Part shown: positions 7,711 to 10,458 of the stretch, one piece after another | How positions within the stretch are numbered: position 1 is the stretch's first letter | How the letters are laid out: each line of letters opens with the position of its first letter | Source: Bdellovibrionota bacterium | GTDB taxonomy: Bacteria; Bdellovibrionota_C; UBA2361 | NCBI GenBank assembly: GCA_044352465.1 | Contig: JBILDU010000101.1 | Span: forward strand, 1 to 10,458 | DNA: 10,458 bases | Direction: 5' to 3' | Notes under the pieces: model-generated | What the model was told of the DNA's origin: nothing | What the model saw: the letters and a program-made list of their open reading frames with translations, nothing else | Databases searched by the model: none | Position numbers and translations under genes: made by a program

Positions 7711-8373
7711 TTAGGCCTCCTTCAGGCCAATTATTCTCCATTGCCGCGCAGCAGTATCCAAAAATGACGGCCTCAAAAGAGCCATCTTATATCTACCAAC
7801 TCCTAGCTCCCCAAACTGCAGATAACCGTCTTTACATTGAGCAACAAAACCACAAAAGAGATCGGCTTGCTTCTCACCATTCGAACGAGCGAGAATGTTG
7901 TAAGCCACATGAGCAGTCACGGCATCGCTCATTGATATATTAGCCAGACCGTCATCCCTCCGTTGCCTGATCGAAAGCCTCTGCGACCCCTCAACGCAAC
8001 CATCGACACGGATAGTTGCAGAGCCTGCCCCAGGCTCCGTAAATTCCGGCTCTTTTCTCAAATACTTCAAAAGCTCCGGAAGAACCGTATTCCCCCCCGC
8101 AAATTTATTTGCCCGCTCAACGAAATCTCGCCGCGACATACCACCCAAAGATACTGAGATGACCCCCGGCTCTGGGGAATGAATGTCATGTTCCTGGACG
8201 AACACCTGTATAGCCGTAAGATCTTTCTGCGTTGCGCTGCTTAAGTCATTACCGCTAAATGCGGCGGCGTCCAAATCACCCTTATAGTAGTCGCCGGAGT
8301 AATTCCCACCGCCGCCCCCACTCGACCCCTCGAAATCGGAACTTCGCTTGGCATTATTTTGGAACATCGACAT
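7711..8373 (-). CDS. Hypothetical protein (220 aa), Gly/Ser-rich N-terminus
   Basis: Longest ORF in the interval. GGGAG SD lies 5 nt upstream of the ATG. No family recognised. Confidence 0.65.
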   Translation of the reverse strand: MSMFQNNAKRSSDFEGSSGGGGGNYSGDYYKGDLDAAAFSGNDLSSATQKDLTAIQVFVQEHDIHSPEPGVISVSLGGMSRRDFVERANKFAGGNTVLPELLKYLRKEPEFTEPGAGSATIRVDGCVEGSQRLSIRQRRDDGLANISMSDAVTAHVAYNILARSNGEKQADLFCGFVAQCKDGYLQFGELGVGRYKMALLRPSFLDTAARQWRIIGLKEA

Positions 8374-8617
8374 ACAAGCTCCCTATTGAATCGATTCCGA
8401 GCTGGCCAAAGGCCTACCAAAAACCCGGGGGCTTTCGATGATGCCTCTCCGAGCAACCCCTCTTTCACTAGGTTATGGCTCTAAGCGCAGCTGAGGACGC
8501 ATAAACAAATGCCCTGATTTCAAATAGATGCGCCGACGAACGTCTGCCAGCCCCGCTCGGTGACCTCATTGAATGGCTTTTACCACCACTCCGCGAGGCG
8601 ATATTTTCAGACAAAAC

Positions 8618-8847
8618 TGCGGAGAGAGGGGGATTCAACCGCCTCCTTTTAGTCGGCGGGTTCGAATCCCCAAACTGAATCTGAAATAGAAACCGGCGGA
8701 GAGAGGGGGATTCAACCGCCTCCTTTTAGTCGGCGGGTTCGAATCCCCAAACTGAATCTGAAATAGAAACTGGCGGAGAGAGGGGGATTCAACCGCCTCC
8801 TTTTAGTCGGCGGGTTCGAATCCCCAAACTGAATCTGAAATAGAAAC
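8618..8847 (-). repeat. tRNA-linked tandem array A: 3 x ~77 bp directly 3' of tRNA-Ser(GGA)
   Basis: Minus-strand unit: GTTTCTATTTCAGATTCAGTTTGGGGATTCGAACCCGCCGACTAAAAGGAGGCGGTTGAATCCCCCTCTCTCCGCCA. Copies lie at 8771-8847, 8694-8770 and 8618-8693. The last 20 nt equal the 3' end of tRNA-Ser(GGA). Confidence 0.95.
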
Positions 8848-8937
8848 TGGCGGAGAGAGGGGGATTCGAACCCCCGATAGGTGTTACCCTATACACGCTT
8901 TCCAAGCGTGCGCCTTCAGCCACTCGGCCATCTCTCC
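8848..8937 (-). tRNA. tRNA-Ser(GGA)
   Basis: GGAGAGATGGCCGAGTGGCTGAAGGCG-CACGC TT GGA AA GCGTG-long variable arm-GGGGGTTCGAATCCCCC-TCTCTCC-GCCA, 90 nt. Confidence 0.97.
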
Positions 8938-9059
8938 GGAACTTGTTAAATGTCTCAGACGAGAGATTTAATAAATTTCGGTGGGTATCTTCTGACTAAC
9001 GTCGCAAGTCCTGACCGAGCCCTCCATTCGACTCGCTCACCTCGTTCGCGGGCGCGATA

Positions 9060-9152
9060 TGGCGGAGAGAGGGGGATTCGAACCCCCGATACGGCTTTTG
9101 ACCGTATAACGATTTAGCAAACCGCCGCCTTCAGCCACTCGGCCATCTCTCC
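9060..9152 (-). tRNA. tRNA-Ser(GCT)
   Basis: Anticodon arm GCGGT TT GCT AA ATCGT, long variable arm, GGTTCGAATC, encoded CCA, 93 nt. Confidence 0.96.
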
Positions 9153-9218
9153 GGATTGCGTGGGAAGGGTGATTAAGATCACCTTCCCTATGGGTCTCTA
9201 ACGCGCTCGGTCGTTAAG

Positions 9219-9308
9219 TGGCGGAAGGAGAGGGATTCGAACCCCCGGACCCGTTTCCGAGTCTCTGGTTTTCAAGACCAGTGCCTTCAACCACTCGGCC
9301 ATCCTTCC
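9219..9308 (-). tRNA. tRNA-Ser(TGA)
   Basis: GGAAGGATGGCCGAGTGG..., anticodon arm CTGGT CT TGA AA ACCAG, long variable arm, encoded CCA, 90 nt. Confidence 0.97.
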
Positions 9309-9353
9309 GAATTTACAGGCCAAACACGTACCCATCCGGCAATTTAGGGGGTA

Positions 9354-9383
9354 AGACTAACGTAAGACCCTAATTATTTGCAA
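9354..9383 (-). promoter_or_regulatory. Putative sigma70 promoter for the Ser(TGA)-Ser(GCT)-Ser(GGA) tRNA operon
   Basis: Minus strand TTGCAA-18 nt-TAGTCT, ~45 nt upstream of tRNA-Ser(TGA), in an AT-rich divergent intergenic region. Confidence 0.55.
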
Positions 9384-9402
9384 CAATTCGATTAAGCAAA
9401 TT

Positions 9403-9431
9403 TTGCCTTCAAGCGGAGGATCTGCTACTTA
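9403..9431 (+). promoter_or_regulatory. Possible sigma70 promoter for tRNA-Arg(ACG)-tadA
   Basis: TTGCCT-17 nt-TACTTA with TGn preceding the -10. The -10 is imperfect. Confidence 0.35.
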
Positions 9432-9449
9432 TATCCGCTCGGAAACGGG

Positions 9450-9526
9450 GCACCCTTAGCTCAGCTGGATAGAGCGTCTGGCTACGAACCAGAAGGTCAG
9501 GAGTTCGAATCTCTTAGGGTGCGCCA
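9450..9526 (+). tRNA. tRNA-Arg(ACG)
   Basis: GCACCCTTAGCTCAGCTGGATAGAGCG-TCTGG CT ACG AA CCAGA-AGGTC-AGGAGTTCGAATCTCTT-AGGGTGC-GCCA, 77 nt. Confidence 0.97.
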
Positions 9527-9561
9527 CTTTCTCTTAAGTAAGCCGACCTAAAGCGGATAAG

Positions 9562-10029
9562 GTGAAGATCGAAGCGAAATTCATCGACACGCTGATGGAA
9601 ATCGCCCTTGAGGAAGCGAATCTGGCCCAAAAATCGGGCGAGGTTCCTATCGGAGCGGTTTTGGGCCTGAGAGGGAAAGTCATCGCTCGCGCCCATAACG
9701 AGATGGAGCGGCAGCGAAACGCGACAGCACACGCAGAGGTTTTAGCGATCGGACGGGGAGGTGAGCTCCTCGGCGGTTGGCGCCTTAACGACGCGGTGCT
9801 GTGTGTCACGGTTGAACCGTGCACGATGTGTGCGGGAGCGATAAGTCTCTCCCGAATCGGAACGGTCGTGTTCGGTGTAGCGGACCCACGCTTAGGAGCG
9901 TACGGTTCCCTCTATGACATCTCCCAAGATGAGCGACTCGGCGCTACGCCCCGAGTCATCTCGGGAGTGCGGGAGAATGAATGTCGCGGATTGATGCAGA
10001 GGTTTTTTTCGGAGCGCCGCGCTAGGTAA
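9562..10029 (+). CDS. tadA: tRNA adenosine(34) deaminase TadA
   Basis: MEIALEEA...GEVPIGAV, AHAEVLAI, GGWRLND, TVEPCTMCAGAI (Zn-binding HxE and PCxxC). GTG start, adjacent to its substrate tRNA-Arg(ACG). Confidence 0.95.
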   Translation: MKIEAKFIDTLMEIALEEANLAQKSGEVPIGAVLGLRGKVIARAHNEMERQRNATAHAEVLAIGRGGELLGGWRLNDAVLCVTVEPCTMCAGAISLSRIGTVVFGVADPRLGAYGSLYDISQDERLGATPRVISGVRENECRGLMQRFFSERRAR

Positions 10030-10147
10030 ATCATAGCGGTCGTTACCGCGACGGTGCGAAGCTCTCTCGGTTCATGAAACCGAAGGTTCTTGCAATCGGT
10101 TCCAACGTGATTGAGGAAGTTCTCTCTAAGAGACCTTCCCCATCCAC

Positions 10148-10237
10148 GGAGAGGTGGCCGAGTGGCTGAAGGCGCCTGATTCGAAATCAGGTATAGGGTA
10201 ACACCTATCGGGGGTTCGAATCCCCCCTTCTCCGCCA
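10148..10237 (+). tRNA. tRNA-Ser(CGA)
   Basis: GGAGAGGTGGCCGAGTGGCTGAAGGCG-CCTGA TT CGA AA TCAGG-long variable arm-GGGGGTTCGAATCCCCC-CTTCTCC-GCCA, 90 nt. Confidence 0.97.
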
Positions 10238-10458
10238 GTTTCTATTTAAGATTCAGTTTGGGGATTCGAACCCGCCGACTAAAAGGAGGCGGTCGCAATC
10301 CCCCCTTCTCCGCCAGTTTCTATTTAAGATTCAGTTTGGGGATTCGAACCCGCCGACTAAAAGGAGGCGGTCGCAATCCCCCCTTCTCCGCCAGTTTCTA
10401 TTTAAGATTCAGTTTGGGGATTCGAACCCGCCGACTAAAAGGAGGCGGTCGCAATCCC
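10238..10458 (+). repeat. tRNA-linked tandem array B: at least 2.8 x 78 bp directly 3' of tRNA-Ser(CGA), running off the window
   Basis: Unit: GTTTCTATTTAAGATTCAGTTTGGGGATTCGAACCCGCCGACTAAAAGGAGGCGGTCGCAATCCCCCCTTCTCCGCCA. Copies lie at 10238-10315, 10316-10393 and 10394->10458. The last 19 nt equal the 3' end of tRNA-Ser(CGA). Confidence 0.95.

Follow-up and report, generated by a model that had tools for sequence, protein, structure and literature searches.

Tandem hairpin arrays ending in tRNA tails behind two tRNA-Ser genes of a lake-water bacterium: a probable new variant of tRNA-linked repeats

Integrase-borne islands and phages leave attL/attR duplications of the 3′ part of a tRNA gene that start from the T loop, where integrases are known to cross over, and may be stacked in tandem, and REP/REPIN and similar miniature hairpin repeats are mobilized by Y1 (RAYT) transposases. 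A further class, the tRNA-linked repeats (TLRs) of Escherichia coli, has been known since 1978 and, according to the available part of PMC8144298, has no accepted origin or function. As defined there, a TLR closes with 18–19 bp that repeat the 3′ end of the upstream tRNA or rRNA without a mismatch, and the 22 TLRs of E. coli K-12 are spread over ten loci, each of which has one to five of them (PMC8144298, available part). Here, we analyze two tandem arrays, A and B, located directly behind tRNA-Ser(GGA) and tRNA-Ser(CGA) of a Bdellovibrionota bacterium. The window, i.e., the whole stretch of DNA analyzed, is the complete contig C127 (JBILDU010000101.1; 10,458 bases) of a metagenome-assembled genome (170 contigs, 3.13 Mb, 94.9% complete), and the source labels of the public runs containing this genome are lake-water or freshwater metagenomes. 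Overall, we find it fairly probable that both arrays are TLRs of a new sequence variant, i.e., hairpin modules bounded by tRNA 3′-end repeats that are locally amplified and co-transcribed.

The arrays form a real, well-defined structure that has probably been locally amplified. Tandem Repeats Finder placed array A at 8614–8872 (period 77, 3.4 copies, 97% matches) and array B at 10219–10458 (period 78, 3.1 copies, 100% matches), with copy counts that include the tRNA tail. When the units were aligned with both tRNAs, each array started at the base right after the CCA of its tRNA gene, and the first 56 positions of A and B units were the same bar position 11, where A units have C and B units have A. 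The shared core and the two periods given in a preliminary description of this locus are real. That description also had every unit end in the tail of its own tRNA, which holds for the internal units (exact copies, 20 nt long in A and 19 nt long in B) but not for the terminal ones: the last bases change along array A (Table 1), and the terminal B unit carries a tail of the A type. If a single substitution plus one or two minor changes are allowed, the likeness to the tRNA reaches upstream over the whole T arm. Array B is interrupted by the contig end and goes on at contig C16 (positions 1–118, 100% identity to B units across 118 bases), followed by a closing degenerate unit. Since the contig break falls inside the array, its copy number is at least three full units plus the terminal unit, which brings both arrays together to at least seven units.

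Array A is bridged within the contig, and its three units can be told apart by their last bases. Contigs from two runs of different studies were equal to 8300–8648 without any difference, run contigs also reproduced the tRNA-to-B junction exactly (run X3), and a 73-nt piece specific to A, of which the locus should contain two copies, reached ~1.7–2 times the flanking depth. Four of the twenty listed runs were used for this comparison, one of which (X7) contained tRNA genes of relatives only, and these runs consist of contigs, so that neither the copy number of B nor variant alleles can be read from them.

On the tRNA strand, each unit begins with a U-rich spacer of 22 nt, followed by a 14-nt antisense copy of the T arm, a GC hairpin, and a sense tRNA tail, four parts in all. 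The antisense part (unit positions 23–36) is the exact reverse complement of 14 nt of the host T arm, a length that 0/2000 shuffles reached, while the sense part covers the 3′ half of the T loop, the 3′ strands of the T stem and the acceptor, and the GCCA of the host tRNA. The GC hairpin consists of 5 bp and an 11-nt A-rich loop with one GGA/Shine–Dalgarno-like (AAGGAGG-type) motif per unit. In the predicted fold, the antisense and sense parts pair to form one long hairpin per unit with a 12-nt single-stranded 3′ tail. The A-unit RNA folded at −28.0 kcal/mol (z −3.43; 0/200 shuffles equally stable) and the B-unit RNA at −26.5 kcal/mol (z −2.63); folds of the opposite strands were less distinct (z −2.22 and −0.95). 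The unit hairpins persisted in a fold of the whole transcript, where the 5′ strand of the tRNA was predicted to pair with a downstream tail copy. The Ser T arm is almost palindromic, with the antisense reading ahead of the sense reading by two positions only; the distinction is unambiguous at tRNA-Trp and in relatives. Two other interpretations of the unit were rejected. One was an origin of the apical hairpin by inverted copying of the variable arm of tRNA-Ser, to which its sequence is unlike. The other was a coding role for the frame that stays open through array B, 78 being a multiple of 3, given the period of 77 in A and the lack of the candidate start in B.

Next, the sense-plus-antisense rule was examined at Ser, Arg, and Trp loci as well as at E. 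coli tyrV. Among the 44 tRNA genes of this genome, tRNA-Trp provides one further case, with a 99-nt downstream unit in ~1.7 copies that has the same four parts: a spacer, a 21-nt copy of its own tail, an antisense piece that spans T loop, T stem, and acceptor with 11 exact nt (3/2000 shuffles), and a GC hairpin that resembles the one of the Ser units and also carries a GGA loop. In 25 relatives, we scanned the 300 nt downstream of 73 non-redundant tRNA genes at Ser/Arg loci, using upstream sequence as a control (n = 71). Own-tail copies of at least 12 nt were found downstream of 8/73 genes vs 1/71 in the control, and antisense copies of at least 13 nt for 15/73 vs 4/71; some of the antisense-only matches belong to the module of a neighboring gene, Ser T arms being alike. 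Sense and antisense copies occurred together at 7/73 tRNA genes, in 6/25 genomes, and several relatives displayed two or nearly two tandem units of 95–137 nt.

One conserved core found in relatives, from a related family, had 10 matches in 6/91 genomes of the order (1–3 per genome, none in the genome studied here, G000) and 0 for a reversed-pattern control. Complete units with this related core stand behind Ser-GCT, Ser-CGA, Arg-ACG (G014), and Arg-TCT (a locus apart, in G042), and the antisense and sense parts always correspond to the tRNA in front. Partial copies made of antisense and core without a tail copy follow Ser-TGA in G008 and Ser-GGA in G016. For eight related-core units, the RNAalifold consensus comprised four helices, i.e., a closing tRNA-derived stem, an invariant stem from the T-loop palindrome, and two hairpins; pairing was maintained through two-sided changes at 10/21 predicted pairs, most of which lie in the tRNA-derived stem and thus trivially track the tRNA. 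Modules of this kind are therefore established behind unrelated tRNAs, at low copy number.

The present core, on the other hand, is confined to this locus. Its 8 strong matches in the genome all fell at the two arrays or on C16, in agreement with a blastn search of the arrays, a pattern that differs from the many dispersed copies expected of MITEs (miniature transposable elements with inverted repeats) or REPINs. The core was absent from 60/60 relatives (BLAST), and two pattern scans each of genome and metagenome contig collections, which may omit the window's own genome, gave 0 matches. Against Rfam, only tRNAs exceeded the threshold within 8300–10458; matches to Plastid-psbI-rps4, sX4, isrA, permuted tmRNA, and other families scored below gathering, lay on or across tRNA genes, and were dropped. 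The RtT model (RF00391) had 0 matches genome-wide at E up to 1 (45-bit threshold; E. coli control positive) and none within 8300–10458 even at E up to 10. The preliminary description had suggested looking for copies behind other tRNAs with the ends of those tRNAs: none were found for the present core in the genome, the 60 relatives, or the collections, and related modules of the wider family do occur in this way. It had also named beforehand an occurrence at these two loci only as pointing to local duplication, which is what the distribution of the core now indicates. As for the empty sites that it mentioned, the same-family genomes G002 and G003 have tRNA-Ser(GGA) and/or tRNA-Ser(CGA) without a module, and no variant allele was seen in the run contigs, which cannot show copy number.

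The origin of the host-specific tails can be approached from the outermost units. Three diagnostic tail positions distinguish the arrays, namely the base after the GC hairpin and two acceptor positions (7-mer TCTCTCC in A vs CTTCTCC in B). On C16, the terminal B unit combines a B-type base at core position 11 with the A-type state at 3/3 diagnostic tail positions and with small deletions, and the terminal units of A and B both lack one C, the same one, of the final GCCA. TCTCTCC is also the acceptor 7-mer of tRNA-Ser(CGA) in 4/6 relatives read (G006, G008, G013, and G016; not G002 and G003). The inner B units are 100% identical to each other and carry the present tRNA-Ser(CGA) tail, and the A units are 97% identical; such near-identity fits a recent local amplification. 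Together, these three bases and the identity pattern, on which the account is built, suggest that host tails were rewritten from the tRNA by unequal recombination, with no need for an insertion enzyme, and the repeated enzymatic insertion of a ~57-nt cassette proposed in the preliminary description becomes dispensable.

Specifically, a module would occupy the interval from the final tRNA gene of a row to whichever terminator or gene comes next, and the row would grow by slipped-strand or unequal recombination between the real tRNA tail and its downstream copy. Each new internal unit would thereby gain the tail of the host tRNA, while the outermost unit would retain the founder tail and decay. 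Because tail-by-copy recombination would rewrite the inner units and spare the outermost one, host-specific tails could be explained without a dedicated enzyme. Arrays A and B would have a common origin, the near-identical 3′ halves of the inverted tRNA genes having most likely served as the route by which a founder unit of A was copied into B, and the wider set would consist of lineage-wide tRNA-trailer foldback modules established behind various tRNAs with the sequences of each tRNA. We infer that amplification is ordinary recombination with the tRNA gene and a step separate from founder seeding. Alternatively, the acceptor pair of tRNA-Ser(CGA) may have changed after the founder arrived, which would leave the conclusion on amplification the same.

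Co-transcription of the arrays with the tRNA genes is probable, and it is plausible that they are processed into CCA-ended RNAs. In that case, tRNA 3′-maturation enzymes would cut the units in the spacer after each tail copy and release hairpin RNAs with a tRNA-like 3′ end. What the sequence shows is a location right behind the tRNA gene, a hairpin fold, and a tRNA-identical tail followed by a U-rich spacer. A terminator-like site beyond array A (Table 1) is a weak hint that the array belongs to the tRNA transcription unit, and the terminator/promoter scan found no promoter-like site.

Several observations weigh against amplified, co-transcribed TLRs as a full explanation. Terminator-like sites were at chance level (2 found vs 2.7 expected in shuffles), and the single RNA run compared (X17) had cover only on tRNA genes and with many differences, i.e., from other organisms, and says nothing on array expression. 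Membership in the RtT family as judged by RF00391 fails. The A-to-B direction of copying depends on three diagnostic bases. Slippage alone does not yield a founder with matching antisense and sense parts, and the presence in relatives of one core behind unrelated tRNAs (Arg-ACG, Arg-TCT, and Ser types) requires some seeding beyond local duplication. Finally, the absence of the core from relatives is weakened by incomplete assemblies with drop-out of tRNAs and repeats, and by the same-genus genome G001 (78% complete), where no tRNA-Ser gene was found. For the seeding step, an enzyme-free route is possible, in which a module would take hold through microhomology at the universal T loop, and correction templated by the hairpin would preserve the match between its antisense and sense arms.

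An unlikely alternative is a non-autonomous mini-element inserted unit by unit at the T loop/3′ end by a trans-acting enzyme (a tyrosine integrase, an HUH/Y1 REP-RAYT-type transposase, or an RNA-guided recombinase), the antisense piece serving as an address or the hairpin mimicking a duplex target. A tail copy that begins at the integrase crossover position, an antisense piece that matches the host tRNA, and the host-specific antisense and sense parts around the related core of relatives are all in line with this, as are the paired changes in the related-core helices, except that these mostly follow the tRNA. The genome encodes three proteins with weak Y1_Tnp domains (23.7–27.1 bits, cut-off 23) and three tyrosine recombinases. 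No link of the Y1 or tyrosine recombinase genes to the units was found in this genome: comparison of the Y1 loci with the units gave only chance matches of 11–12 nt. No reverse transcriptase (RT) was found in the genome, and the window has no integrase, transposase, or RT gene, as that description had stated (no recombinase domain in the 9 window open reading frames (ORFs) scanned with Pfam). Moreover, the present core sits at two adjacent loci only, the related core is low-copy as well, and a target-duplicating insertion would not predict a terminal B unit without the host tail, unless the tRNA changed later. A broader scheme, which we consider doubtful, would see the modules as a gene-less, self-addressing tRNA-trailer family that uses the T loop as a foothold, copies the host tail both ways through hairpin-templated synthesis or repair without a dedicated transposase, and yields stable hairpin RNAs, shaped by tRNA maturation enzymes, as decoys or sponges for factors that recognize tRNA ends, with the E. 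coli TLRs as one branch.

It is improbable, in our view, that the arrays are functional small-RNA genes whose GGA-loop units act as a sponge for a CsrA-type protein or as a decoy for tRNA 3′-end factors, and the notion that unit RNAs titrate CsrA or other factors reading tRNA ends is speculative. CsrB/RsmZ-type sponges are marked by multiple GGA motifs in hairpin loops, with CsrA present; here, there is one GGA-containing loop per unit, across the at least seven units of both arrays. The Trp unit also has a small hairpin with a GGA loop, and the genome has a csrA gene (85.3 bits). In the available part of PMC8144298, three TLRs behind 5S rRNA (RrA/B/F) bind Hfq and CsrA in vitro, but the other 19 TLRs, located in tRNA operons, score <0.01 in a predictor of CsrA binders. 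Further, a GGA motif in the loop is not common to the modules of relatives, and conservation of the core fails already at the family level, which speaks against a conserved regulatory role.

A neutral local accident, i.e., a single tRNA-tail duplication followed by slippage, with no wider family and a coincidental likeness to other tRNA trailers, would be consistent with a core unique to two adjacent loci and with almost identical units. We rate this as quite unlikely as well: the four-part build recurs at tRNA-Trp, in 6/25 relatives, and at E. coli tyrV, sense and antisense copies are in excess downstream relative to upstream, and the T-loop breakpoint is the same in E. coli and here. Lastly, mis-assembly of a repeat, as might be feared for a short-read metagenome-assembled genome with a contig broken at array B, has next to no probability, and the arrays are no assembly artefact because the A units have distinct last bases in a bridged array, contigs of two studies match, the 73-nt piece has the depth expected of two occurrences, and the tRNA-to-B junction is exactly covered.

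Table 1. Positions of the array units, of neighboring genes in the window, and of related or compared features on other contigs of the genome.
Feature	Position	Strand	Basis
Terminator-like hairpin and T-rich run, ~65 nt past array A	8532..8551	-	Terminator scan
Array A unit 3, terminal, 77 nt, ends CAG	8617..8693	-	Alignment
Array A unit 2, 77 nt, ends CCG	8694..8770	-	Alignment
Array A unit 1, 77 nt, ends CCA, 20 nt of tRNA-Ser(GGA) tail	8771..8847	-	Alignment, fold
tRNA-Ser(GGA), host of array A, last of three-gene minus-strand tRNA-Ser row	8848..8937	-	ARAGORN; Rfam tRNA 60.3 bits
tRNA-Ser(GCT), same minus row, without own module	9060..9152	-	ARAGORN
tRNA-Ser(TGA), first gene of minus row	9219..9308	-	ARAGORN
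tRNA-Arg(ACG), first gene of plus row	9450..9526	+	ARAGORN
Gene for a TadA-type tRNA adenosine deaminase, flanked by tRNA-Arg(ACG) and tRNA-Ser(CGA)	9562..10029	+	Pfam PF14437 2.4e-30, PF00383 5.7e-25
tRNA-Ser(CGA), host of array B	10148..10237	+	ARAGORN
Array B unit 1, 78 nt, with a 19-nt tRNA-Ser(CGA) tail at its end	10238..10315	+	Tandem Repeats Finder, alignment, fold
Array B unit 2, 78 nt, same sequence as unit 1	10316..10393	+	Tandem Repeats Finder
Array B unit 3, broken off at its position 65 by contig end	10394..10458	+	Alignment; resumes on C16:1-118
Trp unit, behind tRNA-Trp 9023-9098	C123:8823-9022	-	Sense/antisense scan
Second hairpin family, behind Val-CAC, Val-TAC, Ala-CGC, Lys-TTT, and a Met-CAT gene	C34:6277-6531, C80:7893-7941, C61:7113-7177, C145:7550-7601, C90:4881-4921		
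Three paralogous ~330-aa frames, weak Y1-transposase domain just above cut-off	C3:15632-15853, C164:1425-1655, C109:1935-2150		PF01797

The arrays belong to a compact tRNA cluster (8848–10237) with a minus row of Ser(TGA), Ser(GCT), and Ser(GGA) and a plus row of Arg(ACG), the TadA-type deaminase, and Ser(CGA). All four tRNA-Ser genes are in this cluster, and each row terminates in a tandem array. An inverted repeat, composed on each side of a tRNA-Ser gene and its own array, thereby flanks ~1.4 kb of tRNA cluster, with tRNA-Ser(GGA) and tRNA-Ser(CGA) ~1.2 kb apart; these two genes are 89% identical and differ in the anticodon arm and two acceptor base pairs. Relatives from the order, e.g., G008, also have this arrangement of genes. 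Within the plus row, tRNA-Arg(ACG) lies 35 nt upstream of the deaminase gene (window 9450–10029), whose enzyme family edits A34 of tRNA-Arg(ACG). The pairing returns in relatives: the Arg-ACG module of G014 is followed by a deaminase-like frame, and Arg-ACG and Ser-CGA are linked over 634 nt in one contig from run X7. Pfam domains in the window comprised a UvrD helicase, a SPOUT methyltransferase, a glycosyltransferase, the TadA-type deaminase, and unknowns.

Other repeats and hairpins were also observed behind tRNA genes. A second hairpin repeat family of this genome follows five tRNA genes and has no exact own-tail copy of at least 11 nt; at Val-CAC, it forms at least three tandem units of about 80 nt (79–80 nt spacing), broken by the contig end. 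Right after tRNA-Ser(GGA)/(CGA), a conserved trailer hairpin occurs in G008 (L034), where it is common to both Ser genes, G015 (L028), and G020 (L025), its outer stem consisting of the last five tRNA bases (CGCCA) and their downstream complement around a GCGAAGCGA-type loop. In G002 (L043), one ~70-nt palindrome trails both tRNA-Ser(CGA) and tRNA-Ser(GGA) despite their different variable arms. Short tandem units follow tRNA-Ser(GGA) in G018 (L036; ~40 nt, three units) and in G016 (L024; ~24 nt, four units, then an antisense T-arm copy).

For the biology of tRNA loci, these arrays matter in three respects. An outer unit with a foreign, decayed tail next to inner units with the host tail separates seeding from amplification, which tend to be treated as one step. 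That a distant freshwater lineage has this architecture too argues for a general, recurrent trait of tRNA loci and not an enterobacterial oddity. Finally, compact natural units of 77 nt are suited to work on processing, stability, and protein binding.

Compared to known systems, the Ser units share with REP/REPIN repeats that they are gene-less, hairpin-forming, and intergenic, but they are undispersed (two adjacent loci), tied to tRNA ends, and carry host-derived sequence, and the flanks of the three weak Y1_Tnp genes share only 11–12 nt with them, unlike a RAYT gene flanked by its repeats. As in attL/attR duplications, foreign sequence is flanked by direct repeats that cover the tRNA 3′ part from the T loop onward. 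Here, however, the “insert” is 56 nt long, gene-less, with an antisense tRNA piece inside and no cargo; the window has no integrase, and the outermost tail of array B is not that of the host.

The likeness is closest to the E. coli TLRs (178-bp tyrT–tyrV repeats, RttR/RtT RNA, RF00391), so that the arrays match a repeat class already described (PMC8144298, available part). We found no description of TLR-like modules outside E. coli in the literature searched, which omitted most subscription journals and the 1978–1999 TLR papers. We read the tyrV locus of E. coli K-12 directly (L053, NC_000913.3:1286500-1287243): its three 178-nt units contain a 19-nt tail copy with a T-loop start at the same position as in the Ser arrays, a 10-nt antisense piece of tRNA-Tyr (positions 68–77; 20/2000 shuffles), and a 9-nt sense T-arm piece. 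The available part of PMC8144298 has no visible mention of this antisense piece. The differences are as follows: there is no likeness in sequence or covariance model, which makes the resemblance purely architectural; the 77/78-nt single-hairpin units are less than half as long as those of 178 nt; a small ORF like tpr is missing; and the host is a distant lake-water lineage, in which the arrays form an inverted repeat around four tRNA-Ser genes. The common features bear out the comparison with the tyrT repeats made in the preliminary description, as to tail copy, T-loop start, and tandem rows. In both cases, the repeats are found directly behind a tRNA gene in a tRNA locus, with membership of the Ser arrays in the tRNA operon itself presumed from this position, and end in 18–20 nt of the 3′ end of their own tRNA, the terminal Ser units deviating. 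In both, the tail is copied from the same T-loop position. The number of tandem copies per locus is one to five in E. coli (available part of PMC8144298), three in A, and at least three plus a terminal unit in B, which crosses the contig break. In both, an internal antisense tRNA piece is present, of 10 nt in tyrV and 14 nt in the Ser arrays. Taken together, because the T-loop breakpoint, own-tail copy, internal antisense piece, and tandem rows are shared with E. coli, the TLR architecture appears to be general.

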